Assembly (NCBI GenBank): GCA_951406725.2
Contig: CATOCA020000001.1
Location: forward strand, 9,858,001 to 9,922,000
Reading direction: 5' to 3'
Source of the DNA: Octopus vulgaris
Lineage: Eukaryota
DNA length: 64,000 nucleotides
Shown: positions 1-35,606 of the stretch, piece after piece
Position numbering within the stretch: position 1 is the stretch's first letter
Layout: every line of letters begins with the position of its first letter
Position numbers and translations under genes: made by a program
Notes under the pieces: generated by a model
What the model was told of the DNA's origin: nothing
Database searches by the model: none
What the model saw: the letters and a program-made list of their open reading frames with translations, nothing else

Positions 1-3000
1 TAGGCATGCGACTGTCCTGCATGCGGCAGACGTGTCCGAGCCAGCGCAGTCGTCTCCGCACGAGGAGGGCATGCATGCTTGGCATATTAGTCTGTTCCAG
101 GATGACTCCGTTTGGTACTGGGTCCTTCCAGGAGATGCCAAGGATCCGTCGAAGACACCGCATGTGGAAGCCGCTGAGGCGGCATTCCTGCCGGGTGTAT
201 GTTGTCCAGCTCTCGCTGCCGTAGAGTAGGGTGCTCAGCACGCAGGCTCGGTACACTGCGATCTTGGTGGTTATTGTGAGCATGTTGTTTTCCCACACTC
301 TCCTGGAGAGCTTAGCCATGGCAGCAGCAGCCCTCCCAATCCGTCTGTTCAGCTCCGGCTCGAGGGACAGGCTGCTGGAGACCGTCGATCCCAGGTAAGT
401 GAACTCGTTCACCACCTGCAAGCTGTGGTCGCCGACACTGATGCTGGGGACCCCTCCGACGTCCTGGCCCATGATCTCTGTCTTTTTCAGGCCGATGGTA
501 AGGCCGAACTCTTGGCAGGCATCCGCCAGGGAGCTGAACAGCCTCTGGAGACCCGGCTGGTTGTGTGATGTTAGGGCGGCATCGTCAGCAAAGAGGACCT
601 CTCTGATCAGCACCTGACGGACTTTGGTCTTAGCTCTGAGGCGCGCAAGATTGAACAACCCACCATCAGCTCTGGTGTGGAGGAACACTCCGTCGTCGGA
701 CGTTCTGAAGGCATAGGACAGGACAAGGGAGAAGAAAATTCCGAAGAGCGTCGGCGCCAGAACGCAACCCTGTTTCACTCCACTCTGGATGGCGAACGAC
801 TCCGAGGGCAATCCGTCAAACTGCACTGTTCCCTGCATACCGTCGTGAAAGGAGGTGATGAGTTTCAGCAGTCTGGGAGGGCAACATATCCTACCCAGGA
901 GCGCAAACAGCCCCTCCCTGCTGACTGAGTCGAACGCCTTAGCCAGGTCGATGAAGGCCACGTATAGGGGCTGTCTCTGTTCTCGACTCTTTTCTTGAAG
1001 CTGCCTGAGTGAGAAGATCATGTCGATTGTAGACCTCTCTGCCCTAAAGCCAGACTGAGACTCGGGGTACACACGCTCTGCAAGCATTTGCAACCTCTTC
1101 AGGACCACCCTGGCAAATGCCTTACCGACAGTGCTGAGCAGGGATATGCCCTTGTAATTATTACAGTCGCTTCTGTCCCCTTTGTTTTTATACAGTGTGA
1201 TGATGTTTGCGTCACGCATATCCTTAGGGACAGAGCCCTCCGCCCAGCACTGACAGAGCAGCTCGTGGAGATGGCCCAGAAGGGCTGGCTTCCCGCACTG
1301 GATGACTTCTGCGGGGATGCCGTCTTGCCCTGGTGCCTTGCCCCGAGCGAGTGAGTCAATTGCTTTGCTCAGTTCTTCCTTTGTTGGAGGCAGGTCAAGC
1401 TCCTCCATGACAGGCAGAGCAGGAATGCCGGCGAGGGCAGACCTGGTGACCACATTCTCAGTGGAGTAGAGGTTCTGGTAATGCTCGACCCACCTCTCTA
1501 TCTGCTTCGCTTGGTCCTTGATGACCTCGCCATCCCTGGACTTCAGTAAAGCAACCTTGCTGACAGTGGGCCTGAATGCTTTCTTCATCCCCTCGTACAT
1601 CCCTTTCACGTTACCACTGTCAGCACAGCACTGGATGTTCTGGCATAGGTTCTGCCAGTAGATGTTGGCGCAACGTCTGGCCGTCCTCTGGGCGTCACTT
1701 CTGGCTGTTCTTAGAGTAGCCAGGTTCTTTTCTGATGGGTCGCGCTTATAGTTGACCAGTGCTTCCCTCTTGGCAGCAATGACAGGCTCCATCTCAGGCA
1801 GGTGAGCCTCAAACCAGTCTTGATTTCTCCGCTCCCTCTTTCCTAGGGATGACATGACTATTCTGCAAGTGGTGTCGCGAATAAGCTGCCATCTCTCCTC
1901 GATGGACGTGGCTGCGTGATCTTTAAGGGCCTCCTCCATGCGGTTGGTGAATTCCGAGCGGAGGTCGGGGTTGGTTGTCCTGGCGGTGTTGATGCGTGGG
2001 CGGCTTTTCCCTACGGGACGGCGGATTTTCTTTGGGGCCAATCGGACCCTACTGCACACCAGAGAGTGGTCTGTATCACAGTCAGCACCATGGTAGCTGC
2101 GTGTGAGAAGCACACTGCCGAGGTGGGCTCGCCGGGTGATGACCATGTCCAGTTGGTGCCAGTGTCCTTGGGTGCCTCCATGAGACCCGGTGTTGTGGCT
2201 TAGTCGTGAAGAATGTGTTGGTAACGCAGAGTTTCCGGTAAGAGCAAAGCTCCAACAGTCTCTGGCCATTCTCATTCATCTTCCCCACGCCAAAGCGTCC
2301 AAGGCAGTCTGGCCATGCCCCATGATCGAATCATCCCACCCTTGCGTTGAAGTCGTCCAGAAGGAAGATGGGCTCCGACCCTGGTATCTGGCTGATGGTG
2401 GCGCCGAGCTCCTCATAGACCCGGTCTTTTATTTTCTGAGGAGAGTGGAGTGTTGGGGCATAAGCACTAATTATGTTTACCTTCCCCGTTGATGTTGCAA
2501 GGCCAAGAGTGAGGATGCGCTCTGAGCCATTTGAAGGAGGGATCGCCATGGGGAGCAAGCTGTTCCTCACGGCAAACCCCACGCCATGCTGGCGGGCCTC
2601 CTCGACGGGTCTCCCCTGCCAGTAGAAGGTGTAGTCCTTCTCCCGTAGCATGCCGTCTGCGGTGAGCCTGGTCTCTTGCAGCGCGGCTATGTCGATGTTC
2701 AGCCTTTTCAATTCGGTGTTGATGACTGCTGTCTTCCTACTGTCGTTCATCTGTCGTAGATCGTCAATGATGCCAGGGCACATGGTCCTGACATTCCAGG
2801 TGGCCAGTCGCAAGACTGGAGACTGGGTATTTGTTTTTCCTTTGTTTGCTGGTGCAGGGTTTTCAGTCTGCTTTTCAGATTTTGTCCTAGCTCCAAGCAC
2901 CCATTGAAGCGGGCAGTCTGTGGCGGCTTAGCACCATTATTGGCCGGGGGCTGCCCAGCTTAAGGCGGGCGGTAGCTGACCAGTGGGACTTCAATGATCC

Positions 3001-4058: not shown

Positions 4059-4555
4059 GTGTGTTTTTGTGTGTGTGTGTGTGTGTTTGTGTGTGTGTGT
4101 GCGCGAGCGTGCGTGTGTGTGTGTGTGTGTGTGCGTGTCTGTGCGTGTGTGACTGTATTTTCAATTGCGTGTGTGTATGTGTGCGTTTGTGCCTTTCGAC
4201 ACCAGTGCGTGCGTGCGTAACGACACACACACAAACACTCACACACATTCATGCACAAAATTGAAAATGCACAGTTACACACTGAAACACTCACACACAG
4301 AAACGAAAATACACACGCACACATAATTAAAACCAGTCATAAACACACACAGAAATGAAAATACTCAGACACACTCACACTCACACACGCACACACACAT
4401 ACGGACAAACACACACACACACAAATGAAAATACACAGTTACACACTCACACACACACGCCCACACGCATACACTAGCGCGCGCACACACATACACACGC
4501 ACAAACAATGAACTGGAAACTCGCGCGCACGCAGACACAGAAATGAAAACACACA
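4024..4555. repeat. (GT)n-rich tract followed by (CA)n-rich tract with recurring ACAGAAATGAAAA(T)ACAC spacers
   Basis: Strand polarity of the dinucleotide repeat switches at ~4220. Confidence 0.8.
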
Positions 4556-4587
4556 TATGTGTGTGTGTTTGTGTGTGTGTATGTATG

Positions 4588-5085
4588 AATAGATTTGGTA
4601 GATGGAAACTGAAAGAAGCCCATCGTATATAAATGTATACATATATGTGTGTGTGAGTGTGTGTGTCTGTTTCCCCTCACCCTCCAACATCGCTTGACAA
4701 GAACCGCTAGGCTTAAAGATAATGTCTTGGGATTGATTTGCTCGACTAAATGCGGTGCTCCAGCATGCCACAGTCAAATGACTGAAACAAGGAAAATCAA
4801 AACATATATATATATATATGTTCTTTTATTTTACTTGTTTCAGTCATTTAATTGTGGCCATGCTGGAGCACCGCATTTAGTCAAGCAAATCGATCAGGCC
4901 TTCAAGAAGGATATCCATATGCTAGAAATAGCAGGCAAAGTCGACCTCGGCGGAATTTGAACTCAGAGCGTAGCGGCAGCCGAAATACCTATTTCTTTAC
5001 TACCCATAAGAGGCTAAACACAGAGGGGACAAACAAAGACAGACATACGGATTAAGGCGATTATATCGACGCCATTGCGTAACTG

Positions 5086-5090
<5 letters not shown>
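4588..5090. mobile_element. Cluster of partial octopus SINE fragments on both strands
   Basis: Matches in-window SINE motifs GATTTGGTAGA(C/T)GGAAACTGAAAGAAG, GGTGCTCCAGCATG, and GGCAAAGTCGACCTCGGCGGAATTTGAACTCAG. Confidence 0.8.
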
Positions 5091-5160
<70 letters not shown>

Positions 5161-5246
5161 CAAATTGAGACAGGGTTTAATAAAGTATTATCTGATAATT
5201 GATTAATGATTTAGATGTATTTCTCCATTTTCTCATGTTGTATATG

Positions 5247-5296
<50 letters not shown>

Positions 5297-5300
<4 letters not shown>

Positions 5301-7095
5301 TAGATAAACTTAGATATGTTTCGACCAAAGATTGGTCCAGGCCATGTCTAACTTAATAGCACCACCTGATAGGATTATTTGAATCCTGTTTAAGTCAAGT
5401 TTTGTTTAAGTCAAGTTTTGTTTAAGTCAAGTTTTGTTCAAGTAGTGAGTTCTTGTTGGGTGAGTTGTATCCAGTTTTGTTCAAGTAGTGAGTTCTTGTT
5501 GGGTGAGTTATATCCAATTATGGGTGGCTTATCTGGTATTCTTTGAAGGAATCTATCCAGACTCTGTTTAAAGTTGATGGGATCCTTTTCCTCTTTGATC
5601 TCTCTCGGGACAATGTTAAATAGGGCAGGGCCTGTTGAGGAAAAGAAATTGTGCTGCAGTGTACATGTATGTTGTGATCTTGAATTGGGCAGGGGACGTA
5701 TAGCCCGTGGTCCAAGTCTTGGATGAACTTGAAGCTAATGTTTAGGTCGTTTGGGCAAAGTTGACGGTATATTTTCCACATCGTACAAATGATGTACCGC
5801 TCACGGCGACGCTGGAGGGAGTAAAGTTTCAAGGCTTTAAGGCGATCCCAATAATCGAGAGCAGCCATGCCTTCAATGCGTTTAGTGAGTGCCCTCTGGG
5901 GTGACTCAATTCTGGAGATGTTTTGTCTTGTGTGAGGAGACCACAGTGGGCAGCAGTATTCAAGGTGTGGCCGTACAAAGGAGGAAAAAAGTGATATGAT
6001 GACACCTTGTTCTCTGGACCGGAAAGTTCTTAAGATCCAGGAACTCATCCTACGAGCTATATCGACCTTCTTGTTGATGTGTGCACTCCAACTGAGATCG
6101 TCATCAACAATTACACCCAGGTCTCTGATATTGTTAGAGGCTGTGAGCGGTTCCCCTGAAGGAAGAGAGTATGGCTGTTTTAGTGAGGAGTTTCTTCCAA
6201 AATGCATCAGCTCAAATTTTCCCTCGTTCAGTTGCATTTTGTTTCTGTCTGCCCATTGACTCACAGCATATAGATCAGACTGGAGTTGAGTTCGGTCTGC
6301 TTCTTCATTGACGATTTGCTGGAGTTGGTGTCATCAGCAAATATTTTCACTTTGCAGTAATGTACGACACTGGAAAGATCGTTTATGTTGATTATGAAGA
6401 GTAGCGGACCCAAGACAGTCCCCTGGGGGACACCGCTGGTGACTTTTGCTGGGCTTGAGTGGACTCCATCAACTACAACATGTGTTCTATTCGCCAGGAA
6501 ATACTCAATCCAGTGTAGAACTTTTCCACGGATTCCAACATTTGCCAATTTTGAGAGTAGGATATTATGGTCTACCCTGTCGAACGCTTTACTGAAGTCA
6601 AGATATATGACATCAGAGTTCGAACCTGTTCCCAAGGCTTTGAGTACATCTTCAATGTGGTGTAAGAGCTGTGTTAGACAGTCCCTGCCACAGCGAAAGC
6701 CATGCTGATTTGCATTTAGTAGTTTCTGGGTCTCCAGGAAGTCAGCCATCCTTGATCTTAACACTCTTTCAAACACTTTGATGATGTGGGAGGTGAGTGA
6801 GATTGGGCGATAGTTGAGTGCGAGGGATCCGTTTCCCTGTTTGAAAACCGGGATGATTGACTGGGATAGAAACTGTTTTGGTATATAACCTGCATCTAAT
6901 GAATTCCTCCATAGGTTGGTCAGTGGGACAGCAAGTTGGTGTTTACATTCCTTCAGGAGACTAACGGGGAATCTATCAGGGCCTACGGCAGAGTAGTATT
7001 TGACCTCATTTATTGCTGCTACGATGCCAGTGGGAGTGAAGGTTATGTCTGCAATTTTGTGTTGGGAGTCACTAAAGACAGCAGTATTGTTTCTG
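5297..7095 (-). mobile_element. 5'-truncated CR1/L2-group LINE (RT domain, 3' UTR and short tandem tail), frameshifted
   Basis: ORFs 6261-7247 and 5518-6264 carry NYRPISLTS, QHGFR, YLDFSKAFDRV, SGVPQGTVLGPLLF, FADD, RDLGV and YSLQRRRER. (ATCTAAGTTT)-type tail at ~5297-5318. Small tandem duplications at 5386-5517. Confidence 0.92.
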
Positions 7096-7441
7096 CAATA
7101 TATATAGAGAGAGAAACATGTATATACATATAGATATTTATATATATGTATATGTGTGTATGTTTCGGTGTCCCCAAAACCGCTGGACAACCAATGCCGG
7201 TGTTTTTTACACTCCATTAACTTATCCGTTCGGGAAAAGAAGACCAACAGAATTAATGCTAGACTGACGCAGATAAAAGTCTTAGTGTCGATTTGCTCTA
7301 GAAAAGGCTGTGCTCCAGCATTGGCACAGTGAAATGACTAAACAAGGAAAAGAGTAAAAGTGTATGCGTTACGTCTGAACATTGTATTGTAGAGTTAATT
7401 AGCTTCCATAATACATTTTGATGATAGTTGTCATGTAACTA

Positions 7442-7809
7442 AATGTAAGGGAGGTAACTTTTGAAGATTTTTAGTTATCTCCTTTCTAGAGTTACTCCCC
7501 TTGAATATTATAATTTAACAATAGATAATAGTAATTTAATTAGATGTAAGGGAAGTAACTCTGGAAGATTTTAAAGTTATCTTCCTTCGTAGAGTTACTT
7601 ACCTTGCATATTTAATAATATGCAAGGGGGAGTAACTCTAGAAAGGGCAATAATTAAAAAATCTTCCAGAGTTACCGCCCTTACATCTAATAAAATTACT
7701 TTTACGTATTATTAAATTATAATATTCAAGGGAAGTAACTCTAGGAAGGGAAATAAGTACAAATTTTTCCAGAGTTACTTCCCTTACATTGTAACGTAAT
7801 AACGTTACA
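7442..7809. repeat. Fold-back (palindromic) element built from four AAGGGA(A/G)GTAACTCT...AGAGTTAC(T)CCCTT hairpin modules
   Basis: Axis at ~7614 (CCTTGCATATT-TAAT-AATATGCAAGG). Outer arms 7442-7472 and 7761-7790 are reverse complements. Extra hairpin TGTAACGT-AATA-ACGTTACA at 7790-7809. Confidence 0.8.
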
Positions 7810-7810
7810 A

Positions 7811-7900
7811 TTAGGGTTTAGGGTTAGGTTGGGCTTAGGGTTTAAGGTTAAGGGTTTAGGGTTAGGGTTAGTGTTTAAGGTTAGGGGTTGGGGTTAAGGG
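7811..7900 (+). repeat. Degenerate (TTAGGG)n tract
   Basis: TTAGGG, TTTAGGG, TTAAGG and TTGGGG variants on the + strand. Confidence 0.85.
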
Positions 7901-8040
7901 TTCTTCAAGAGCTGCACTTAATGTTGCGTGTGTCCGTGTTTCTGGGTCGCAATTTTTGAAACATTCGTAAAGCATCAGGTAGACTTGTTTTACAGCGTCA
8001 ATAGACTCATCATCAATTTTCAGTTCAGTTGTATCAACTC
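7901..8040 (-). pseudogene. Truncated exon encoding a death-domain-like peptide
   Basis: Acceptor TTTTTTTAG on the - strand, then (G)VDTTELKIDDESIDAVKQVYLMLYECFKNCDPETRTHATLSAALEE. This fits the death-fold pattern LG..I..(E)Q.Y.ML..W....AT...L..AL. The frame runs into the telomeric tract. Confidence 0.55.
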
Positions 8041-8922
8041 CTAAAAAAATAGCTGCGAAATACGCAACAATAAGAAATAAATGCAACAACCTTAACAATA
8101 TTAACAATAATATAAAAGATGTGTGTTGTTATAAACATAACAAAGAAACTATTTCAAGAGAGAAATATAAAAAATATAGCTAAGAAACAAGAAAACTATA
8201 AGACATTGTTATTTATATCTTTATAAATCCGAGTAAAATTACATAATGGATTTTAAAAAAACAAAGAAAAAATGAAAAAAAATTTATGTTCCTGAAACAA
8301 AAAAGTGAAACAGAATGTATACTCATACGTGTGTGTATTGTGTCGATGTATATATAATAAAAAAACAGTCTATATATTTATACTGGTGACAAGTGCGAGT
8401 GTCAATAGTTTATTATACATTGATTCGTATATGGCTTCCTTTATTGAATTCTAATTCAGAAAGATTGAAATCAATTCACTATTCACGAGTGAGTTCATAT
8501 TCTTATGTATATGTACATATAAACACATTAAACAAGAAAGAATGTCTTTATGTATTGTCATGCGTGTGTTTATATGTGTGTGCGTGTGTTATATTAGTTC
8601 TCAACAAGACATATTGGTACAATGTTATCAAGGTAACAATGTCTTTATTATTATTATTATTATTATTATTACGTTCTGAGTTCAAATTCCGCCGAGGGGT
8701 CCTACCGGGGTCGATTAAATAAGTACCAGTTACGCGCTGGGGTCGATGTAATCGAATTCTGGTTTGCACGCACAACGGTAGGAACCTAGGAAATTCTGAC
8801 ATATGGCACCATAACGACAAGGTTTCCTTAAAAACTCGTTGATGTCTGAAAAATGAAGCAGAAATTTTATTATTTTCAAAATTATTTGAAGCAAAGAAAG
8901 AGTATTTCAATGGAAATTGAGC

Positions 8923-9590
8923 CCTAACTCTACCCCTAACCCCTAACCCGAACCCCTTCTGTAACACTGAACCCCCGAGACCACTTCTGTGACCACCCGA
9001 GACCCCATCTGTGACCCCACTTCTAGAGACTAACCCAAACCCCTGACCATGTGAGCCCCTCATCCCTGTGACAAGCGAGACCCCTTCCTGTGCCCAACCA
9101 ATTCCGGAGACCCCACCAATTCCGGAGACCCCACCAATTCCCGAGACCCCAACAATTCCCGAGACTAACACTAACCCTAACTCTAACCCGAACCCATTCT
9201 GTAACCCTGAACCCCCGAGACCACTTTTGTGACCACCAGAGACCCCATCTGTGACCCAAATTCCAGAGACTAACCCAAACCCCTGACCATGTGAGCCCCT
9301 CATCCCTGTGACAAGCGAGACCCCACTAATTCCCGAGACCCCACAAATTCCGGAGACCCCACAAATTCCGGAGACCCCACAAATTCCCGAGACCCCACAA
9401 ATTCCAGAGACCCCACTAATTCCCGAGACCCCACAAATTCCCGAGACCCCACAAATTCCCGAGATCCCACAAATTCCCGAGACCCCACAAATTTCCGAGA
9501 CCCCACAAATTCCCGAGACCCCACAAATTCCCGAGACCCCACAAATTCCCGAGACCCCACAAATTCCCGAGACCCCACAAATTCCCGAGA
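8923..9590. repeat. Telomere-associated satellite: two ~240-bp units with an expanded 18-mer (GAGACCCCACAAATTCCC)
   Basis: Units start at ~8947 and ~9187, each bounded by CCCTAA-like repeats. About 15 copies of the 18-mer at 9317-9590. Confidence 0.9.
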
Positions 9591-9899
9591 CTAACCCTAA
9601 CCCTAACCCTAACCCTAACCCCAACCCAACCCAACCCAACCCTAACCCTAACCCTAACCCTAACCCTAACCCTAACCCCAACACCAACCCCAACCCCAAC
9701 CCAAACCCAAACCCTAACCCTAACCCTAACCTAAACCCAACCCAACCCAACCCAACCCAACCCAACCCAACCCTAACAACCCAACCCAACCCAACCCAAC
9801 CCAACCCAACCCAACCCTAACACTAACCCTAACCCTAACCCAACCCCAACCCTAACCCTAACCCTAACCCTAACCCTAACCCTAACCCTAACCCTAACC

Positions 9900-9971
<72 letters not shown>

Positions 9972-9997
9972 CCATAAACCTAACCCTAACCCTAACC

Positions 9998-10038
<41 letters not shown>

Positions 10039-10154
10039 CCCTAACCCTAACCCTAACCCTAACCCTAACCCTAACCCTAACCCTAACCCTAACCCTAACC
10101 CTAACCCTAACCCTAACACTAACCCTAACCCTAACCCTAACCCTAACCCTAACA

Positions 10155-10189
<35 letters not shown>

Positions 10190-10197
10190 CCCCTAAC
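9591..10197 (-). repeat. Interstitial telomeric array, (CCCTAA)n on + / (TTAGGG)n on -
   Basis: About 600 bp. CCCAA/CCCCAA variants at 9620-9850, near-perfect CCCTAA at 9850-10197. Confidence 0.96.
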
Positions 10198-10199
10198 AA

Positions 10200-11402
10200 T
10201 CTTTACTGATTAAGAGAATATTATCAGCAATGATCTACTTGAAAATGCAAAGATCATTTCAACTAAACAATGGTAAAAGTAGGTACCAGGTATTAGTGAT
10301 TAAAAAGTATGACAAGGGTTTTGTTTGGACGATCGAAATAAAGATATTGTTGTAAACAGGTTGATTACATTAAGATAATTTAGCGAGTTTAGTCCTGTGA
10401 TTCATTAAGTGTATAATATAAAGCTAAACTTCGAACCCAAATTTAATATTAATTGTTTTATATTTGAAATTATTTTTAAGTATGCTATGGTGCTCAAAAC
10501 TAAAATAATAAACGGTGGTAATATGGCAAAGATGACTTTCAAAGTATAACATAGGTTTAATCGTAAACTTGAATATATCACATAACTTCTTTTATGTCTC
10601 ATGTCTTTTTCTCTCAGCTCATTTGTTCTTTACCATTCATAGAAACTAACATTACACTTCCATCGTCACCACATTTCTTTCCAAACTTTTGCAGATCCTC
10701 TCCATTCAAGGCCCATCACTAGCTACCACGAGGCACATCGCTTTGGCCATGTCACTGACAAACAAGCCATTTGTGGCCAGCAGACACAGTAACTGTCTGA
10801 ACTTTATCAAACCCCGTTCTTACTGTGGCAACTATGTCCGCGAAAGACCCGTCCTCACAACTTATTCGGAGCCCTATCGTTAAAATCTGGGGATTGCGAG
10901 GAATTTATTAATCAAGCATTGTCACCACCACCACCACCACAACCATAATCAGCACTACTACTGCTACTACAACTACTACTACACACACCTATATAAGTGT
11001 ATATATATATATACCTATTTCTTTATTACCCAAAAGGGGCTAAACATAGAGGGGACAAACGGATTAAGTCGATTACATCGACCCAAGCGTGTAACTGGTA
11101 CTTAATTTATGGACCCCGAAAGGATGAAAGGCATAGTCAACCTCGGCGGAATTTGAACTCAGAACGTAGCGGCAGACGAAATACGGCAACGCATTTCGCC
11201 CAGCGTGCTAAAGTTTCTGCCAGCTCACCGTTATATGTGCATATATATATACATGTGTGTGCAAGTTCATACACAGACGTACATATATACATTCATATAT
11301 GGAGACATATCTGTGTGTGCGTGTGTGTGTGTATGTGCGTGCATTCAAGGAACATATACACATAATGGCATATACAGTATAGGCAGTTGAAGAACCATAC
11401 AC
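10200..11402 (-). repeat. Inverted, slightly diverged paralog of 19014-20231 (and of ~27835-29052)
   Basis: Same ORFs on opposite strands (MRHKRSYVIYSSLRLNL at 10405-10602 - versus 19805-20017 +). Both junctions were traced by eye. Confidence 0.92.
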
Positions 11403-11589
11403 CAAATGTTGAAACGGAGATAAAAAAAAACTGTTCTTGAAATATCGGTTTCAAATCGTGGTACAAGACCAGTAATGTTTTTGGAAGGCTTAACCGATTA
11501 TATTGACCCCAGAACTGGTATTTGTTTAGCTACCCTGGAAGGAAGAAAGACAAAGTCGACCTCGGCAGAATTTGATTTCCTTCCTTTCC

Positions 11590-11698
<109 letters not shown>

Positions 11699-13338
11699 TT
11701 CCTTCCTTTCTCTCCCTTCTTTCCATTCTTTATCCCTCTCTCCCTTTTACTGTCTTCATTCATACCTCTCTCTCATACTCTCTCACGGTCTGTCTCTGTC
11801 TGTCTCTCTCTCCCTCTCTCTCTCTTTCTCTCTCCCCGGCTATTACATTCTCAACATTCTGCTAGACAGAAGACAGAATTCTGAGGGGATGTCAATGCCT
11901 GCTCCTGACTACACAGGCATCTGAAACAATTAGCAAAAGTATGCTACATACTACCAGGTCCTCTTTGTTTCTCAGTCACAGCTATGCTCCCTGCTGTTAA
12001 TAAACTCCTTCTTCTTACTTATCACTGATGTGGTCCAATGAAACCCCTTGTTTCTCCTTTTCTCCGAATCAAGCATGGAATTTCTTTGTCAGACACAACT
12101 AAGGTAACTAGACAATCCCCATATAGGAAATTCTTGTTAAGTTCTTAATCCTTCTCTTGTGGCTTAGAGACGTGTAGTGAACAGGAGAGGGATGTGAATT
12201 GATCCCTGGACTTCACAGATGGTTCCTACTATCAACTCAGTGACACACCAATCCTTTGCTTTTTACATCTACTTTAAATTTAGATGAAAATCTAAGAATC
12301 CACCCCGGTGTGTAGAGACTTTGAATATGTAGAAGATGACATTTTTCTAAAAATGTTATGTTCCCAGTTTAGTAGAAAAATTGGTATCTTGGTATTTCTG
12401 GTGTGTGTGTGTATGATCGCCAAAAGTTACCGTATTTGTTGGTTCACAGCAGAACCTAATCGCCAGTGCATTCCTCCTTTCTATGAATATGGATTATTTA
12501 ACAGGTCTTAAAATATAAATCCTGCTGTCGATTTGTTTTCACTAATATCTTTCAAGGCGGTGCCCCAGCATGGACACACAAATGCTTGAAACAAGTAAAA
12601 GATCAAAGCTACAGAGAAAATAACAGCAAAGTTTCAAAAGAGGAAATAAACTTTGAACTTGGCCAAACGTTTGGCAAATACGACATGGTCATTTAGAAAC
12701 ATCTAGAAGCTGTAGATGTACCTCACCTCAAAACTAACAACAGGGGACAATGGTCTGAGAACGTTTGGAATGATTTAAGTGTTTCACTATTTAGATTAGA
12801 AAATATCGGTTTCTAATTCTGTCTCAAGGCCGCCAAACCGAGGAAGGTGGTAAATCGATTACATCAATCACAGGGCTCAAATGGTGCTTATTATCTTGAC
12901 CCCGAATCGATGTAAAGCAAAGTGGAACCCATTTGAAACCCGAACGTAAAGACGGACGAAATGCCGCAGGGCATTGTGTCCCTCAGATCAATGCTTCTAC
13001 CAGTTCACCTCCATAAGATGCGAAAATCTTAAATGAAGGGAGGAACGATTAATCATGTTTTAGGGATGAAACTAAACAGGTTTCTATGTACATACGATTT
13101 ATTTTTTTCTGATAATGAAATCAGGGAGTCTGTTACAGTGAAAGGTTGCAGTCAGTGAAGAGACACCCGGCACCGCTTGACAACCAATATTGGCATGTTT
13201 AGGTCCCAGTAACTTAGCGGTTCGGCAAAAGAAACACAGCACAATTACCAGGCTTTGAAAAAATATACAAGTACTGGGATCGATACATACAACTAAAAAT
13301 TCTTCAAGGTGGTGCACCAGCATGGCCGCAGTCTAACT

Positions 13339-13720
13339 TTCCCATCTCCGTTACAGGAAGTAATGTTTCGACCTGTAGAGTCGTTCCCAGTCACTAATCT
13401 GCTGCACTGAGGCAACCTTCATTGTGAAGCTTCGTTTAATCGCCTCGAGTTTAGCTCTTAATTTTACACGATGTGGTGGTCATCGATGGAAGCAGTAATC
13501 ACACTGGCCAAGAACAAATATCCTCCAGAGGACCATTATAGTTTCCTGCTTCTTTGAACTGAAACTTCTAAGAATTCATCCACCCAACCACCTGAATTTT
13601 ATTGCCAGCTTCGTAATATGCACATGGAAGTGTGCAACATTGGACATGTCAATGCCTAAGTCACGCCCTGATTATGAATCTGGGACCGAAATCCCTCCAG
13701 GTCCACCATATGTTGTCCGT
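13339..13720 (-). mobile_element. Decayed CR1/L2-like RT C-terminal fragment (also ~22175-22556 and ~31008-31389)
   Basis: Minus-strand translation with indels gives RDLGIDMSNVAHFHVHI...ILRSFSSK...LEAIKRSFTMKV...DWERL, homologous to the 5518-6264 ORF. Confidence 0.75.
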
Positions 13721-13983
13721 TGATAGTATGCGGTTTCGAAATGTGCAACACTAACCTGCATGGGTTCTGTATATTTCATGTCAACTGGGACCTCATATTT
13801 CTGGTTCGATTTCTCTTGATGAATAATATTCAAACCTCGGTCAACGCAAATTTTATTAGGAATTTTTCTACATTCTTAGTATTGAGTTCCTCTTTCAGTT
13901 ACATTTCATTGTCTCTCAAACTTGCGTTCAAACAATAATACTTTTAAGTACACACACGTCAGTGCATTATGTGTGTGTGTGTA

Positions 13984-14014
<31 letters not shown>

Positions 14015-14243
14015 ATGTATGTATGTATGTATGTATGTATGTATGTATGTATGTATGTGTGTGTATGTATGTATGCATGTATGTATGTATGCGTGTATGT
14101 ATGTATGCATGTATGTATGTACGTATGTATGTATGCGTATACATATATATATATATATATATTATGCATATATATATATGCATACATATACATACATACA
14201 TACGTACACACATACATACATATATATATATATATACATACAT

Positions 14244-14289
<46 letters not shown>

Positions 14290-14924
14290 AAGGATATGTA
14301 TATGTATGGTATACATGAAATATATGAAATTAACATGTGTGTGTGTGTGTGTGTATATACACATATGCAAGTAGTTTCTCCTTTTTACCTGCTGTGAGAA
14401 CCTGCTACGCCTACAAACACACACACATACATAAATATATACGGGCACACATATAGATGTAACATACACACATACACAACTGCTATAACTAATGTCAAGA
14501 TTTATCATTTGTCCTCGTGATTAAATGCACAACGCCATGTGTGTAAAGTTCACACCTTATCTCAATATACAACGTGGACAATTCTGGTAATCTCATTATA
14601 AATAAGAGTAAACTGAACGGGATTTCTGTATATTTCATCGCACTTCTCGAAGCACGCTGAGCATCCAATATATTCTTGCGAGACAATCTCTTCAGATTCC
14701 AACAGAAAACCGAATTATTTATACAGGTACGTATTATTCTTGTATTTGTTTCAATTAACAAATTATTTTCTTTTTTTTTTAAATATCGTTTAACTTTTAG
14801 TTAAAACCCTGACAACACAAACCACAATTTTTATATATTTTAAACAAATATAATTGGCACATTTCAAATATATTTTCTTCTTATAAAAACAATTTTAATG
14901 TTTTCATCTTTATTAGGAGGCAAA

Positions 14925-15575
14925 ATAAGTACCAGTTACACACTGGAGTCGATATAATCGACTTAATCCGTATGTCTGTCCTTGTTTGTCCCCTCAGTGT
15001 TTAGCCCCTTGTGGGTAGTAAAGAAATAGGTATTTCGTTTGCCGTTAGGTTCCGAGTTTAAATTCCGCCGAGGTCGACTTTGCCTTTCATCCTTTCGCGG
15101 TCGATACATTAAGTACCAGTTATGCACTGAGGTCGATATATTCGACTTAATCCGTATGTCTGCCCTTGTTTGTCCTCTCTGTGTTTAGCCCTTAGTGGGT
15201 AGTAAAGAAATAGGTTTTTCCTCTGTTTTTACATTCTGAGTTCAAATTCTGCCGATGTCGATTTTGCCTTTCCTCCTTTCGGGTCGATAAATTAAGTACC
15301 AGTTACTTACTGGGGTCGATCCAAATGACTACCCCTTCTCCCAAAACTTCTGGCCCTGTGCCTAGAGTAGAAAAGAATATTTCACTTTTATAAGGAGGCC
15401 AGCTGACAGAAAGCTTAGCAGGCCGGAGGAAATGTTTATGTTCTGAGTTCAAATATTGCCAAGTTCGGCTAGACGTTTGGAAACTGATAAAATTAGTACC
15501 AGTTGAACACTGGGCTCGATGTAATCAACTTAGCTCCGCATTGAAACTACTGGCCTTGTGCCAAAATTTGAATGA
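14925..15575 (+). mobile_element. Tandem partial copies of an octopus SINE (TTCTGAGTTCAAATTCCGCCGAGGTCGAC family), repeated in copies 2 and 3
   Basis: Repeated B-box-like GAGTTCAAATTC and AAGTACCAGTT...GTCGAT cores. A fuller copy lies at 19180-19410. Confidence 0.8.
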
Positions 15576-15669
15576 ATATTTCATCTTTACAAATAATATG
15601 TTGACATCGTAAGACTTAAACAACCTCTTAAGTATAAAAGAATTCTGTTTTTGATATATTCGTATTGAT

Positions 15670-16088
15670 AGGCACTGGAGTGGCTGTGTGGTAAGTAGCT
15701 TGTTTACCAACCACATGGTTCCGGGTTCAGTTCCACTGCATGGCACCTTGGATAAGTGTCTTCTACTATAGCCTCGGCCCGACCAAAGCCTTGTGAGTGG
15801 ATTTGGTAGACGGAAACTGAAAGAACCCCGTCGTATATATGTATATATATATATATATATATAAAATATTATTAGAGACAAAACCACTATTTTGCAAAAC
15901 AAACAAGGAAAGACTTAATCAATACATATTTATTAAAATTTTATGTATTGATTAAGTCTTTCCTTGTTTGTTTTGCAAAATAGTGGTTTTGTCTCTAATA
16001 ATATTTTATAATATTTTATTATAGAATTGGATTTAATCCTAAATCTGATTTTTTCCCTGTAAATTTGGATTTATTCCCTAATATTTAT

Positions 16089-16131
<43 letters not shown>

Positions 16132-16328
16132 ATGTGTTTGTGTCTGTGTTTGTCCCCCTAGCATTGCTTGACAACCGATGCTGGTGTGTTTATGTCCCCG
16201 TTACTTAGCGGTTCGGCAAAAGAGACCGATAGAATAAGTACTGGGCTTACAAAAGAATAAGTCCCGGGATCGAGTTGCCCGATTAAAGGTGGTGCTCCAG
16301 CATGGCCGCAGTCAAATGACTGAAACAA

Positions 16329-16333
<5 letters not shown>
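15670..16333 (+). mobile_element. Octopus tRNA-derived SINE with central microsatellite (also 24505-25170, 33378-33857, 49922-50317 on +; 35722-36117 on -)
   Basis: A-box TGGCTGTGTGG, B-box GGTTCAGT(T/C)CC, internal (TA)n(TG)n, and 3' ...GGTGCTCCAGCATGGCCGCAGTCAAATGACTGAAACAAGTAA. Confidence 0.9.
15861..16090 (+). mobile_element. Short 3'-end insertion of the Naiad-type element with an inverted 5' arm (also 24696-24925)
   Basis: 15927-16090 is the reverse complement of ~57285-57443. 15861-15928 is an inverted copy of part of it, forming a ~68-bp-arm hairpin. Absent from copy 3 at ~33545-33625. Confidence 0.88.
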
Positions 16334-16383
<50 letters not shown>

Positions 16384-16799
16384 TAAGAGTATATTCATAT
16401 ACTGTTTTTGAAAGAACAATCTAGTTTAGAATTGAACAGATTTAGAAAAATTATTTGTGAGTTCTGTGGAATTGTCCGCTGGATTCAGAAAGCCAAAGTG
16501 ATGGTTATTTAAAAGTTTACATTTGTAGATGAGTGAAGTTACGTGGCTTAGTGGTTAATGTATTCGGCTAACGATCGCAATGGAGACAAAGAGAGAGAGA
16601 GAGGGGGAGGAGAAGATTGGAAATGGCAAAGTATGGAGTTATCCTGTATGTGACATGTAACCCAGAGTAAGTCTTGTTGCTGGGTTTTAAATTCCATTTC
16701 ACTGTGAGCACTTTTGAATCCATGATTCTTCTTTATTTCCCTAATGTTAACAAGTGTCGATTAATAATCCTGAAAGCAGTAAATAGGTTTCCATGCATT

Positions 16800-17450
16800 A
16801 GCTAAGGTCAGTGGTTCAAGCTTGGCATCTTTCTTCTAATGAAGTGCGCCTCTGTTATTCGGAGGTTGACGGCATCCACGACTCTTTCTAGTATCCTGGT
16901 GGAACATTCACTTTGGCGATGTTGACCGTTCGGGAATAAAACACTGTGTTGTTTGGACTGAAAGGAATGCTCTTTCACTCTGCGGTGGATCTGTCTCCTC
17001 GTTGATCCGACGTATATGGCTTCACAGTGAGGGCGCGTGGCTTAGTGGTTAGGGCATTCGGCTCATGATCGTAAGGTTGTGAGTTCGATTCCCGGCGACG
17101 CGTTGTGTCCTTGAGCAAGACACTTTATTTCACGTTGCTCCAGTCCACTCAGCTGGCAAAAATGAGTTGTACTTGTATTTCAAAGGGTCAGCCTTGTCAC
17201 TCTCTGTGTCACGCTGATTATCCCCGAGAACTACGTTAAGGGTACACGTGTCTGTGGAATGCTCAGCCATTTGCACGTTAATTTCAAGAGCAAGCTGTTC
17301 CGTTGATCGTATCAGCTGGGACCCTCGTCGTCGTAACCGGCGGAGTCTTTTTATGGCTTCACAACAACATGTCATCTAGTTGACCACTTTCGATTTTACA
17401 CACAGAAGTGAGATCTTCTGATGATGTTTTTCAACTTATTTTCCCTCAAT
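16800..17450 (-). mobile_element. Decayed Penelope-like GIY-YIG fragment (uninterrupted at ~34349-34650)
   Basis: Copy 3 reads VVN*MTCCCEAIYVGSTRKQIHRRAKEH...LRITEAHFIRRKMTSLN, with the YIG, R, E and N motif residues of GIY-YIG nucleases. Confidence 0.7.
17027..17351 (+). mobile_element. Full-length tRNA-derived SINE with a 12-bp TSD (also 25860-26184)
   Basis: A-box TGGCTTAGTGG and B-box GTTCGATTCC. TSD TATGGCTTCACA at 17015-17026 and 17352-17363. Empty site at 34556-34567. Confidence 0.92.
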
Positions 17451-18076
17451 GTGAACCCAGTGTTTATTTCAATGCCTTCGCTTCTTCCATTTCCTCCCTC
17501 TCTTCTTCTTCCCTTTCTCTATAGTCTGCTACAACTGCTGTAGTTTCCCCAGCCACTTCAGGGTTCCGGTCCCATTGACTCCTGTCTGCTCACTGCCGTT
17601 CATGTCGTTGTGCTTCTGTCGTCTTTGTTGTTGCTGTTATTATGAACACCAGATCATTGGCCATTCTTAGCATCGGTCCTCATTCTATAGAATGAGGTCC
17701 GTATGTTTACATACATAAATAATAATCATCATCGTTTAACGTCTGTTTTCCAACTGGCATGCGTTGGGCGCTTTGATGGGAACTGGTAAGCCAGAGAGCT
17801 GCACCAGGTTCCCATTATCTCTCTTAGCATGGTTTCTGTGACTGGATGCCGATCTTTATGCCAACCACTTTTAGGAAAGTACAAGTTGGGTCATCAAGTA
17901 ATTTCCAAAACAAATATTACAGGACTGACCCCTCACAAACAGTTGTCGGATTATAATACTATACGTTCTCCCTTTCATTTTCTGTGTCTCTGTATTCTAT
18001 GTTATATATGTATATTTAGATACATGCATACACACACACACACACACACACGCACACACACACAGATATATATATA

Positions 18077-18397
18077 GAAGCACTCCGTCGGTTACGACGA
18101 TGAGGGTTCCGGTTGATCCGAATCAACGGAACAGCCTGCTCGTGAAATTAACGTGTAAGTGGCTGAGCACTCCACAGACACGTGCACCCTTAACGTAGTT
18201 CTCTGGGATATTCAGGGTGACACAGAGAGTGACAAGGCCGCCCCCTTGAAATACAGGTACAACAGAAACAGGAAGTAAGTGTGAGAGAAAGTTGTGGTGA
18301 AAGAGTACAGCAGGGGTCACCACCGTTTTAGGTGTTTTCGCTCAATAAACACTCACGACGCCCGGTCTGGGAATCGAAACCGCGAACCTATGACCGT
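18077..18397 (-). mobile_element. Related SINE in the opposite orientation (also ~26918-27238 and ~35291-35640)
   Basis: Reverse complement of the 3' half of the 17027 SINE (ACAGACACGTG(T/C)ACCCTTAACGTAGTTCTC). B-box seen as GGAATCGAAAC on +. Confidence 0.8.
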
Positions 18398-18731
18398 ATA
18401 TATATATACATGCGTATACATCAACATTTGTTTATCAGTATGCAAGTATTTGTATGTATGTGAATACATATCTGTATGTATGAATATGTACATTTGTAAG
18501 TGTGTGCATGTGTGTAAAAGATGTGTATGTGTGTGTGTGTACGCGTGCGTATGTTATTATGTACTTGTTTTTCCTGCATCACGATTTACAACCGGTGCTG
18601 GTGCGTTTACATCCCCAAAACCCATCGGTTTGGCACAACCTGCTGGAATAAGTAAGATTTTTTTTTAAATGTCCTGTGCTCCATTTGTCCAACCCAAACC
18701 CTATAATATGTTGCCCCGGCATGGCCGCAGT

Positions 18732-18799
<68 letters not shown>

Positions 18800-20267
18800 T
18801 TTATATAAATACATGTATTCATGTATGTATATACACACATATATATATATATATATATGTACATCTATCTATTTATCTATCTTATTATCTTTATATACAT
18901 ATACACACACACACACGCATACACACACACATATATATATATATATATGTATGTATATGCACCCATATGTGTGTATGTGTGCGTGTTTGTGTTACTTTGA
19001 TATAAACTTCTGTGTGTATGGTTGTTCAACTGCCTATACTGTATATGCGATTATGTGTATATGTTCTTTGAATGAACACACATACACCCGCACACACAGA
19101 TATGTCTCCATATATGAATGTATATATGTACGTATGTGTATGAACTTGCACACACATGTATATATAAATGCACATATAACGGTGAGCTGGCAGAAACTTT
19201 GGCACGCTGGGCGAAATGCGTAGCCGTATTTCGTCTGCCGCTACCTTCTGAGTTCAAATTCCGCCGAGGTTCAGTTTGCCTTTCATCCTTTCGGGGTCCA
19301 TAAATTAAGTACCAGTTACACGCTTGGGTCGATGTAATCGACTTAATCCGTTTGTCTGTCCTTGTTTGTCCCCTCTATGTTTAGCCCCTTTTGGGTTATA
19401 AAGAAATATGTATATATATATATACACTTATATAGGTGTGTGTAGTAGTAGTTGTAGTAGCAGTAGTAGTGCTGGTTATGGTGGTGGTGGTGGTGGTGAC
19501 ATTGCTTGATTAATAAATTCCTCGCAATCCCCAGATTTTAACGATAGGGTACCGAATAAGTTGTGAGGACGGGGTCTTTCGTGGACATAGTTGCCACAGT
19601 AAGAACGGGGTTTGATAAAGTTTAGAGAGTTACTGTGTCTGCTGGCCACAAATGGCTTGTTTGTCAGTGACATGGCCAAAGCGATGTGCCTCGTGGTAGC
19701 AAGTGATGGGCCTTGAATGGAGGGGATCTGCAAAAGTTTGGAAAGAAATGTGGTGACGATGGAAGTGTAATGTTAGTTTCTATGAATGGTAAAGAACAAA
19801 TGAGTTGAGAGAAAAAGACATGAGACATAAAAGAAGTTATGTGATATATTCAAGTTTAAGATTAAACCTATGTTATACTTTGAAAGTCATCTTTGCCATA
19901 TTACCACCGTTTATTATTTTAGTTTTGAGCACCATAGCATACTTAAAAATAATTTCAAATATAAAACAATTAATATTAAATTTGGGTTCGAAGTTTAGCT
20001 TTATATTATACACTTAATGAATCACAGGACTAAACTCGCTAAATTATCTTAATGTAATCAACCTGTTTACAACAATATCTTTATTTCGATCGTCCAAACA
20101 AAACCCTTGACATACTTTTTAATCACTAATACCTGGTAACTATTTTTAAATTTCTTCTCATTGTTTAGTTGAAATGATCTTTGCATTTTCAAGAAGATCA
20201 TTGCTGATATTATTCTCTTAATCAGTAAAGAAGCTAATTGTTGAAATCGAAAAATAAATATGAAAGT

Positions 20268-20455
20268 CACCAAATGTTGAAACGGAGAAAAAAAAACTGT
20301 TCTTGAAATATCGGTTTCAAATCGTGGTACAAGACCAGTAATGGTTTTGGAAGGCTTAACCGATTATATTGACCCCAGAACTGGTACTTGTTTAGCTACC
20401 CTGGAAGGAAGAAAGACAAAGTCGACCTCGGCAGAATTTGATTTCCTTCCTTTCC

Positions 20456-20516
<61 letters not shown>

Positions 20517-23043
20517 TTCCTTTCTCTCCCTTCTTTCCATTCTTTATCCCTCTCTCCCTTTTACTGTCTTCATTCATACCTCTCTCTCATACTCTCTCAC
20601 GGTCTGTCTCTGTCTGTCTCTCTCCCTCTCTCTCTCTCTCTCTCTCCCCGGCTATTACATTCTCAACATTCTGCTAGACAGAAGACAGAATTCTGAGGGG
20701 TTGTCACTGTCTGCTCCTGACTACACAGGCATCTGAAACAATTAGCAAAAGTATGCTTCATACTACCAGGTCCTCTTTGTTTCTCAGTCACAGCTATGCT
20801 CCCTGCTGTTAATAAACTCCTTCTTCTTACTTATCACTGATGTGGTCCAATGAAACCCCTTGTTACTCCTTTTCTCCGAATCAAGCATGGAATTTCTTTG
20901 TCAGACACAACTAAGGTAACTAGACAATCCCCATATAGGAAATTCTTGTTAAGTTTTTAAATCCTTCTCTTGTGGCTTAGAGACGTGTAGTGAACAGGAG
21001 AGGGATGTGAATTGATCCCTGGACTGCACAGATGGTTCCTACTATCAACTCAGTGACACACCAATCCCTTGCTTTTTACATCTACCTTAAATTTAGATGA
21101 AAATCTAAGAATCCACCCCTAAAAGGATGCTTGGGGATGCGGTGTGTAGAGACTTTGAATATGTAGAAGATGACATTTTTCTAAAAATGTTATGTTCCCA
21201 GTTTAGTAGAAAAATTGGTATCTTGGTATTTCTGGTGTGTGTGTGTATGATCGCCAAAAGTTACCGTATTTGTTGGTTCTCAGCAGAACCTAATCGCCAG
21301 TGCATTCCTCCTTTCTATGAATATGGATTATTTAACAGGTCTTAAAATATAAGTCCTGCTGTCGATTTGTTTTCACTAATATCTTTCAAGGCGGTGCCCC
21401 AGCATGGACACACAAATGCTTGAAACAAGTAAAAGATCAAAGCTACAGAGAAAATAACAGCAAAGTTTCAAAAGAGGAAATAAACTTTGAACTTGGCCAA
21501 ACGTTTGGCAAATACGACATGGTCATTTAGAAACATCTAGAAGCTGTAGATGTACCTCACCTCAAAACTAACAACAGGGGACAATGGTCTGAGAACGTTT
21601 GGAATGATTTAAGTGTTTCACTATTTTGATTAGAAAAATATCCGTTTCAAATTTTGTCACAAGGCCGGCAATATCGAGGAAGGTGGTAAATCGATTACAT
21701 CAATCACAGGGCTCAAATGGTGCTTATTATCTTGACCCCGAATCGATGTAAAGCAAAGTGGAACCCATTTGAAACCCGAACGTAAAGACGGACGAAATGC
21801 CGCAGGGCATTGTGTCCCTCAGATCAATGCTTCTACCAGTTCACCTCCATAAGATGCGAAAATCTTAAATGAAGGGAGGAACGATTAATCATGTTTTAGG
21901 GATGAAACTAAACAGGTTTCTATGTACATACGATTTATTTTTTTCTGATAATGAAATCAGGGAGTCTGTTACAGTGAAAGGTTGCAGTCAGTGAAGAGAC
22001 ACCCGGCACCGCTTGACAACCAATATTGGCATGTTTAGGTCCCAGTAACTTAGCGGTTCGGCAAAAGAAACACAGCACAATTACCAGGCTTTGAAAAAAT
22101 ATACAAGTACTGGGATCGATACATACAACTAAAAATTCTTCAAGGTGGTGCACCAGCATGGCCGCAGTCTAACTTTCCCATCTCCGTTACAGGAAGTAAT
22201 GTTTCGACCTGTAGAGTCGTTCCCAGTCACTAATCTGCTGCACTGAGGCAACCTTCATTGTGAAGCTTCGTTTAATCGCCTCGAGTTTAGCTCTTAATTT
22301 TACACGATGTGGTGGTCATCGATGGAAGCAGTAATCACACTGGCCAAGAACAAATATCCTCCAGAGGACCATTATAATTTCCTGCTTCTTTGAACTGAAA
22401 CTTCTAAGAATTCATCCACCCAACCACCTGAATTTTATTGCCAGCTTCGTAATATGCACATGGAAGTGTGCAACATTGGACATGTCAATGCCTAAGTCAC
22501 GCCCTGATTATGAATCTGGGACCGAAATCCCTCCAGGTCCACCATATGTTGTCCGTTGATAGTATGCGGTTTCGAAATGTGCAACACTAACCTGCATGGG
22601 TTCTGTATATTTCATGTCAACTGGGACCTCATATTTCTGGTTCGATTTCTCTTGATGAATAATATTCAAACCTCGGTCAACGCAAATTTTATTAGGAATT
22701 TTTCTACATTCTTAGTATTGAGTTCCTCTTTCAGTTACATTTCATTGTCTCTCAAACTTGCGTTCAAACAATAATACTTTTAAGTACACACACGTCAGTG
22801 CATTATGTGTGTGTGTGTATGTCTGTCTGTATGTATGTATGTATGTATGTATGTATGTATGTATGTATGTATGTATGTATGTATGTATGTATGTGTGTAT
22901 GTATGTATGCATGTATGTATGTATGCGTGTATGTATGTATGCATGTATGTATGTACGTATGTATGTATGCGTATACATATATATATATATATATATTATG
23001 CATATATATATATGCATACATATACATACATACATACGTACAC

Positions 23044-23074
<31 letters not shown>

Positions 23075-23081
23075 CATACAT

Positions 23082-23117
<36 letters not shown>

Positions 23118-24923: not shown

Positions 24924-24968
<45 letters not shown>

Positions 24969-25165
24969 ATGTGTTTGTGTCTGTGTTTGTCCCCCTAGCA
25001 TTGCTTGACAACCGATGCTGGTGTGTTTATGTCCCCGTTACTTAGCGGTTCGGCAAAAGAGACCGATAGAATAAGTACTGGGCTTACAAAAGAATAAGTC
25101 CCGGGATCGAGTTGCCCGATTAAAGGTGGTGCTCCAGCATGGCCGCAGTCAAATGACTGAAACAA

Positions 25166-25216
<51 letters not shown>

Positions 25217-26859: not shown

Positions 26860-26894
<35 letters not shown>

Positions 26895-27572: not shown

Positions 27573-27612
<40 letters not shown>

Positions 27613-27645
27613 TTTATATAAATACATGTATTCATGTATGTATAT

Positions 27646-27682
<37 letters not shown>

Positions 27683-29088
27683 TCTATCTATTTATCTATC
27701 TTATTATCTTTATATACATATACACACACACACACGCATACACACACACATATATATATATATATATATGTATGTATATGCACCCATATGTGTGTATGTG
27801 TGCGTGTTTGTGTTACTTTGATATAAACTTCTGTGTGTATGGTTGTTCAACTGCCTATACTGTATATGCGATTATGTGTATATGTTCTTTGAATGAACAC
27901 ACATACACCCGCACACACAGATATGTCTCCATATATGAATGTATATATGTACATATGTGTATGAACTTGCACACACATGTATATATAAATGCACATATAA
28001 CGGTGAGCTGGCAGAAACTTTGGCACGCTGGGCGAAATGCGTAGCCGTATTTCGTCTGCCGCTACCTTCTGAGTTCAAATTCCGCCGAGGTTCAGTTTGC
28101 CTTTCATCCTTTCGGGGTCCATAAATTAAGTACCAGTTACACGCTTGGGTCGATGTAATCGGCTTAATCCGTTTGTCTGTCCTTGTTTGTCCCCTCTATG
28201 TTTAGCCCCTTTTGGGTTATAAAGAAATATGTATATATATATATACACTTATATAGGTGTGTGTAGTAGTAGTTGTAGTAGCAGTAGTAGTGCTGGTTAT
28301 GGTGGTGGTGGTGGTGGTGACATTGCTTGATTAATAAATTCCTCGCAATCCCCAGATTTTAACGATAGGGTACCGAATAAGTTGTGAGGACGGGGTCTTT
28401 CGTGGACATAGTTGCCACAGTAAGAACGGGGTTTGATAAAGTTTAGAGAGTTACTGTGTCTGCTGGCCACAAATGGCTTGTTTGTCAGTGACATGGCCAA
28501 AGCGATGTGCCTCGTGGTAGCAAGTGATGGGCCTTGAATGGAGGGGATCTGCAAAAGTTTGGAAAGAAATGTGGTGACGATGGAAGTGTAATGTTAGTTT
28601 CTATGAATGGTAAAGAACAAATGAGTTGAGAGAAAAAGACATGAGACATAAAAGAAGTTATGTGATATATTCAAGTTTAAGATTAAACCTATGTTATACT
28701 TTGAAAGTCATCTTTGCCATATTACCACCGTTTATTATTTTAGTTTTGAGCACCATAGCATACTTAAAAATAATTTCAAATATAAAACAATTAATATTAA
28801 ATTTGGGTTCGAAGTTTAGCTTTATATTATACACTTAATGAATCACAGGACTAAACTCGCTAAATTATCTTAATGTAATCAACCTGTTTACAACAATATC
28901 TTTATTTCGATCGTCCAAACAAAACCCTTGACATACTTTTTAATCACTAATACCTGGTAACTATTTTTAAATTTCTTCTCATTGTTTAGTTGAAATGATC
29001 TTTGCATTTTCAAGTAGATCATTGCTGATATTATTCTCTTAATCAGTAAAGAAGCTAATTGTTGAAATCGAAAAATAAATATGAAAGT
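20268..29088 (+). repeat. Tandem segmental duplication, copy 2 (~8.82 kb)
   Basis: Starts with CACCAAATGTTGAAACGGAGA, as do copies 1 and 3. Confidence 0.95.

Positions 29089-35606
<6,518 letters not shown>

Follow-up and report, generated by a model that had tools for sequence, protein, structure and literature searches.

A flipped segment adjoining an internal telomeric array in Octopus vulgaris: possible healing and capture at a broken chromosome end

Introduction

The situations most comparable to the locus described here have been reported from humans, yeast and a fungus. In human terminal deletions, 19 out of 22 cloned breakpoints were healed, 14 with a microhomology of 1–5 bp (PMC3136441), and in cancer genomes only about 10% of the neotelomeres matched the telomerase seed model, telomere capture yielding junctions similar to those of neotelomeres (PMC11293586). 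Human fold-back junctions show microhomologies of 2–8 bp and loops of 766–70,466 bp (PMC3907307); large fold-back loops also occur in yeast, and their resolution by telomere addition is possible (PMC7467729). Internal telomeric tracts are break-prone in yeast (PMC11626172), and in the blast fungus an internal telomere tract is invaded and an outer element gained (10.1101/845669). TTAGGG has been suggested as the telomere repeat of octopus (PMC6160780). The literature that we searched, which leaves most subscription papers outside its coverage, yielded no cephalopod case of a subtelomeric or interstitial telomeric tract.

Here we analyse a stretch of 64,000 nucleotides from Octopus vulgaris (the window; G000:C31:9858001-9922000, in the 2.8-Gb assembly G000), in which a segment, X, lies flipped (X') between an array of TTAGGG repeats and the sequence Y that opens copy 1 of a tandem unit. 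On the other side of the array there is a subtelomeric block, block A, that is common to two other places in the assembly, C42 and C48 (Table 1).

As with the internal (TTAGGG)n tracts at duplicon boundaries of human subtelomeres (PMC2323237), the octopus tract is several hundred bases long, has its G-strand toward the telomere and lies at the edge of a shared block, less than about 100 kb (77 kb) from a terminal telomere; a head-to-head inverted tract, also described in that source, occurs nearby. Unlike the human tracts, the octopus tract has on its inner side an inversion breakpoint that can be dated, and 14 copies keep the unbroken form. As in the healing or capture of terminal deletions (PMC3136441), TTAGGG reads outward from X' in the 5' to 3' direction, starting at the breakpoint, possibly with a short microhomology and, as when a neotelomere is followed by fusion (PMC11293586), the array is short with a second block joined beyond it. 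The cases in these two sources are, however, new clinical or tumour events documented with reads, whereas the octopus site is described from an assembly and shows 1.5% private divergence; given this divergence, the octopus event is likely to be old and inherited. Neotelomeres are expected to be terminal and several kb long, and in the assembly this array is internal and of 607 bp, a situation that a later capture, or a join made during assembly, would explain.

The inverted junction, the 3-bp microhomology and the 1.25-kb loop, both within the human ranges given above, and the presence of a telomere on the free end recall the fold-back inverted duplications of humans and yeast (PMC3907307; PMC7467729). 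In contrast with these, there is no inverted duplicated arm here, and the telomere starts inside the loop, 25–36 bp short of the arm; with the duplicated arm absent, the locus may work like a fold-back but does not belong to the inverted duplications of fold-back type that accompany terminal deletions. A parallel for the gain of elements through interstitial telomeres is offered by the yeast Y' elements. In the MoTeR arrays of the blast fungus, an internal tract is invaded by a telomeric one, which thereby gains a copy of the outer block at its own end (10.1101/845669), although the octopus block is a patchwork of repeats of 38–77 kb and not a defined element.

Results

Table 1. Features around the flipped segment; positions are those of the window.
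Feature	Position	Strand	Remarks	Basis
Inner end of block A	4137..8922	.	Subtelomeric, ~38 kb, continues left of the window to G000:C31:9829134; common to C42 and C48	
TAS, inverted copy in block A	7385..7810	+	AT-rich palindromic telomere-adjacent repeat; 148 matches in G000	
Short decayed TTAGGG tract	7811..7902	+	Opposite direction to the main array	
Heavily decayed telomere-like repeats	8923..9320	-	Common to C42/C48; probably the older portion of the array, linked to the block	
18-bp satellite, 15 copies	9316..9591	-	Local expansion of a unit that has a different, 46-bp setting in C42/C48	
TTAGGG array, about 103 units, 607 bp	9591..10197	-	G-strand runs from X toward the contig-end telomere	
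Junction J1, TTGTT	10195..10199	-	Between the end of X and the telomeric repeats	
Flipped X (X')	10200..11402	-	Non-coding, repeat-rich DNA	Self-alignment; Pfam search
Junction J2, CAC microhomology	11400..11402	+	Start of X to start of Y	
Copy 1 of the 8.8-kb tandem unit (Y onward)	11400..19013	+		
Unbroken X and 36-bp spacer, copy 2	19014..20267	+	Spacer itself 20232-20267	
Unbroken X and spacer, copy 3	27835..29088	+		

Self-alignment of the window identified X' as the reverse complement of 19014-20231 (X2, 94.6%) and of 27835-29052 (X3, 94.5%), and showed 11400-24698 repeated in direct orientation at 20268-33571. These alignments bear out the arrangement described in a first-pass annotation of the window: copies 2 and 3 keep the order X, spacer, Y, whereas before copy 1 X is flipped, the 36-bp spacer is lost and X joins Y at CAC. 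The sequence that precedes X in the other copies is also absent at X', and no inverted copy of Y adjoining X' appeared in the self-alignment, that is, a duplicated inverted arm was not retained.

Pattern searches of G000 allowing one mismatch found J1 and J2 once each and the intact X-spacer join at 14 sites, and all of the 14 other aligned X-bearing loci run on into the spacer and then into Y; the flip is thus the derived state. The CAC at J2 is mild evidence only, because overlaps of at least 3 bp arise in 5.4% of permuted local breakpoint pairs. As for J1, the TT that the first-pass annotation had placed between X and the repeats is indeed present, but its condition as an insertion is doubtful, since the same five bases, TTGTT on the minus strand, are also positions 7–11 of the lost spacer; a 6-bp deletion plus a GTT primer may explain them without any insertion. 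Among the 96 possible 5-mers composed of two free and three telomeric bases, TTGTT is the one present in the first 15 bases of the spacer. Priming from GTT is a possible reading, made post hoc and with the need of that extra 6-bp deletion, which occurs in none of the 14 other aligned copies.

Of the 16 open frames tested from 10408-18665 (microsatellite frames excluded), 15 gave no Pfam match; the two tested inside X' also had none, and no gene was shown to be affected by the rearrangement. Inside the 8.8-kb unit, 16811-17041 (minus strand) yielded a weak match to GIY-YIG, below the cut-off (E 0.0067), from a fragment that we presume might be Penelope-like.

The alignment of X' with X2, put forward earlier as a means of dating the event, showed differences at 36 of 1194 sites (3%), compared with 3 of 1218 between X2 and X3. 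Polarised against other copies taken as outgroups, 18 of the differences were private to X' (of 1191 sites; 1.5%), nine to X2/X3 and eight were mixed. Between copies 1 and 2, the first 1.5 kb shows 20 differences in 1233 sites (1.6%) and the remainder 6 in 5097 (0.1%), so base accuracy is high on the Y side. From these values, X' and the start of Y belong to a lineage older than the tandem duplication. That both are older than the rest of copy 1 fits a local flip, which would afterwards have escaped homogenisation; X' is also more diverged than the adjacent Y (p=0.03), an excess that would be compatible with a donor of X' from another copy. With the lineage of X' older than the duplication, the neighbouring copies are its cousins and not its parent, and they do not make a clean unbroken control. 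A tree built from the final 700 bp of X (15 rows, L056 and L057 being too short for inclusion) likewise keeps X' apart, in an unresolved group and with the bootstrap not settled, whereas X2 and X3 form a pair; no parent copy of X' was identified from it.

Sequencing error was discarded as the source of the divergence of X', considering that copies 1 and 2 differ at just 6 of 5,097 sites nearby and that, at nine sites, X' matches other copies against X2/X3. The tandem copies also show sharp steps in divergence at around 12900 and 14900 of the window, where that between copies 1 and 2 falls from 1.6% to 0.1% and that of copy 3 rises to 2–4%; these steps are likely the crossover points of the 8.8-kb duplication.

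At its other end, X' runs into the roughly 600 bp of TTAGGG that had been annotated, with the repeats running outward, the right polarity for G-strand addition to this end. Per 100 bp, from the break outward, the coverage by TTAGGG is 0.86, 0.99, 0.86, 0.65, 0.24 and 0.58; the cleanest repeats thus adjoin the break, as first described, and decay is strongest on the block side. The purity of the first 300 bp is the highest of 15 junctions scored, but it is close to that of L111 (0.90, 0.79, 0.98), an end with the telomere-adjacent repeat that we named TAS in this analysis, and is hence not unique, in a comparison that is blurred by nanopore errors. The window array comprises 65 canonical and 18 five-base units, compared with 66 and 18 in the stretch counted in C42, and it lacks a long CCTGG stretch.

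Farther out, the decayed repeats are 65–68% like pure repeats, about 6 SD above 30 shuffles, and differ from C42 by two substitutions in 351 columns; the 18-bp satellite next to them is no more telomere-like than shuffles. The decayed repeats likely predate the X' lineage, an age argument that is soft because variant telomere repeats are not clock-like. Old repeats on the block side and clean ones on the side of X are as expected if a block with its own aged repeat tail had joined a younger tract.

The flank at 8240-8900 and the decayed repeats (8923-9330) have full-length matches at only three places, the window, C42 and C48, all of which carry the same outer flank. Similarity to C42 and C48 extends for about 38 kb outward and stops inside the array, which makes the array an exchange point, either biological or made by the assembler. 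In both C42 and C48, block A and the decayed repeats lead to an array of 1.0–1.3 kb and then to TAS, not to X. The original proposal that the telomeric block was made wholly at the break is not supported in view of this near-identity of its outer half, and of the 38 kb beyond, with sequences leading to TAS, and the outer half of the array likely predates the break. Over 14,052 filtered columns, 74 differences are private to the window, three to C42 and two to C48; C42 and C48 differ from each other at five columns, and the window from these at ca. 0.53%. C42 and C48 are therefore taken as a single haplotype, and just two haplotypes of block A were found, a pattern also expected from two alleles of one locus.

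In C42, the TAS and short decayed tract that point against the main array give rise to two subtelomeric arms in opposite orientation, with 91% similarity across 1.1 kb, an arrangement that resembles an old head-to-head subtelomere fusion.

The sole gap within 264 kb around the window (G000:C31:9781037-9781136) is followed by a contig that starts, in mid-scaffold, with 9,544 bp of telomere (G000:C31:9781137-9790680; L129, L130), whose middle includes 4,590 bp reading CCTGG. Nanopore sequencing is reported to miscall CCCTAA as CCCTGG (10.1101/2022.01.11.475254), and we infer that the CCTGG run is the same artefact. This telomere is 77–87 kb from the array, 77 kb from it at the inner edge, with no gap before the window and with the same polarity as the array, both being CCCTAA on the + strand. 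It is likely that the start of this contig is a true chromosome end that was set within the scaffold; the outer 10 kb of either end of C31 contain no telomere repeats (L156, L157). Likewise, TAS and long arrays occur deep inside C5, C7, C27, C28 and C30, and several chromosome ends seem to be buried in scaffolds. The contig before the gap (G000:C31:9733567-9780983) holds the right part of the window again, at 93–97% and with an intact X-spacer-Y, as a paralogue or a second haplotype.

The best 30 of the 148 TAS matches represent 24 distinct sites. A long telomeric or miscalled array directly adjoins TAS and points away from it at 15 of them, two at scaffold starts; three sites are the inverted copy in block A with its short decayed tract, and the remaining six have no long array within 1.5 kb. 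TAS also follows the contig-start telomere of C31. It is therefore the usual inner neighbour of long arrays, to which X' is an exception; other arrays with non-TAS neighbours are L034, L035 and L038. The TAS and decayed tract at 7385-7902, oriented against the main array, are found also at L036:6144-6460 (C33). Head-to-head junctions of TTAGGG with CCCTAA arrays occur in L038:4870-9016 (C22) and L037 (C7), and L038, with non-TAS sequence on both outer flanks, is a candidate telomere-telomere fusion.

Part of 10150-11700 is contained in 19 of the 24 public runs listed, the best with 0.44 of the sampled words. Among short contigs from four runs placed on 10165-11575, none of the 32 pieces listed (of more than 430,000) bridges J1 or J2, in a set swamped by a very high-copy repeat at about 11030-11230, with the telomeric edge outside coverage, counts in two of the runs being lower bounds and two runs read to about 76–80%. 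At 10563, 10699, 10721, 10799, 10870 and 10871 the placed short contigs all show the letter of the other copies, which indicates neither presence nor absence of the variants of X', because contigs drop rare variants.

Discussion

Plainly observed are the inversion of X, its joining to Y at CAC and the loss of the DNA that precedes X. To account for them, we tentatively propose, as a reading that stops a little short of an even chance, that a break with a local flip was capped by telomerase, possibly primed on GTT, and that the outer block was later captured by recombination between repeats. If a single break occurred where X starts and was then resected, the 3' end could fold back onto the CAC situated 1,254 bases (~1.25 kb) away; a cut near the base of the loop and fill-in would then leave X' joined to Y, the free end lying within the spacer. 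The double break inferred in the first-pass annotation would not be required, as the fold-back of one break would give the same product; two breaks and religation would nonetheless yield it too, and no duplicated arm is left to decide between them. Telomerase would next extend the new 3' end, possibly from the GTT in the spacer, and the new telomere would recombine with the telomeric tract of another end, taking the outer block of that end. The outcome would be 600 bp of TTAGGG left internal, with a normal TAS-telomere 77 kb further out.

The weak point of this two-stage scheme is that capture by itself gives the same sequence in one step. The flipped X end would have been joined straight into the internal tract of a C42-like donor, through end-joining at the GTT microhomology or break-induced replication, acquiring the repeats and everything beyond together and without telomerase. 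Such a donor structure is present in C42/C48; the window array, shorter than the 1.0–1.3 kb of the donor, resembles the donor in unit composition; capture has been recognised as a route of repair (PMC3136441, PMC11293586), and the break-proneness of internal tracts in yeast also helps this explanation. We nevertheless consider it rather unlikely: a telomere tract several hundred bases long would offer a far larger target than a 3-bp match, healing exceeded capture in the human series (PMC3136441), and no unit-for-unit match to the donor was shown, the 18-bp satellite of the window being arranged differently from that of the donor. The earlier suggestion of telomerase healing retains the derived, single-site flip with repeats of the right polarity, but de novo addition and capture are indistinguishable from this sequence.

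Another explanation, which we see as unlikely, places the join inside the array in the assembly process. X' would be a real healed end, fused by the assembler to the second allele of the C42/C48 locus, so that only its internal position is an artefact. It is kept alive by the existence of just two block-A haplotypes at an allele-like distance (0.53%) in a region that is redundantly assembled, where C42 and C48 hardly differ and a full telomere lies in mid-scaffold at the gap, and also by the nanopore miscalls in the telomeres of this assembly. The sequence is, however, gap-free from the contig-start telomere to the window, and the window array differs in how its satellite is arranged and contains no long stretch of CCTGG. 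An array of 600 bp is, besides, short relative to long reads.

It is very improbable that the whole telomeric block was made de novo here and became internal later, with the TAS-linked copy of C42/C48 derived from the window. Polarity and purity fit, and a terminal telomere that invaded the array and copied outward would produce the TAS-array-A join, as described for the fungal arrays (10.1101/845669), which leaves the sequence of events without proof; against it, the outer half of the array is about one-third diverged from pure repeats, compared with the 1.5% of private change in X', and decay is greatest farthest from the break.

That 8923-10197 could be a mobile, telomere-bearing repeat inserted at many sites is hardly credible and is contradicted by the 38-kb flank common to its three full-length sites, without any visible flanking duplication common to both ends, even though other telomeric arrays weakly match one of its variant units, of 50 bp.

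Taking jointly the two-stage proposal, the join by the assembler and the making of all repeats in place, telomerase probably acted at X'. More doubtful is a fuller version of the proposal, in which a germline end was rebuilt in octopus in three readable steps: a fold-back inversion without a duplicated arm, GTT-primed telomerase action and the hop of a 77-kb cassette. The cassette would then have brought its own aged repeat tail, and the array would be a layered record of hopping between chromosome ends.

If real, the locus is a base-level record of an animal germline rebuilding a chromosome end, for which the same genome keeps both 14 copies of the unbroken arrangement and a candidate donor of the outer block, and it would show how internal telomeric tracts can arise at the edges of subtelomeric blocks. 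Each of the steps is known from humans, yeast or fungi, so it adds an example and not a mechanism. On a practical side, the analysis defines the telomere-adjacent repeat of this genome and reveals probable true chromosome ends inside scaffolds.

Other features of the window

A non-LTR retrotransposon occupies the left end of the window (1-2927, minus strand). Pfam recognises an endonuclease (E 1.6e-06) and a reverse transcriptase (E 2.2e-29) in its frames, and it also has a 758-aa open frame; it is likely young, because a 2-kb tile over it has no match in C42 or C48. Toward the right, an inverted repeat of 0.5 kb (50365-50878; 91%) ends exactly at the start of a 1.4-kb direct duplication (50875-52281 and 57360-58766; 99.8%), and the boundary near 50875 may be a second junction of the fold-back type.
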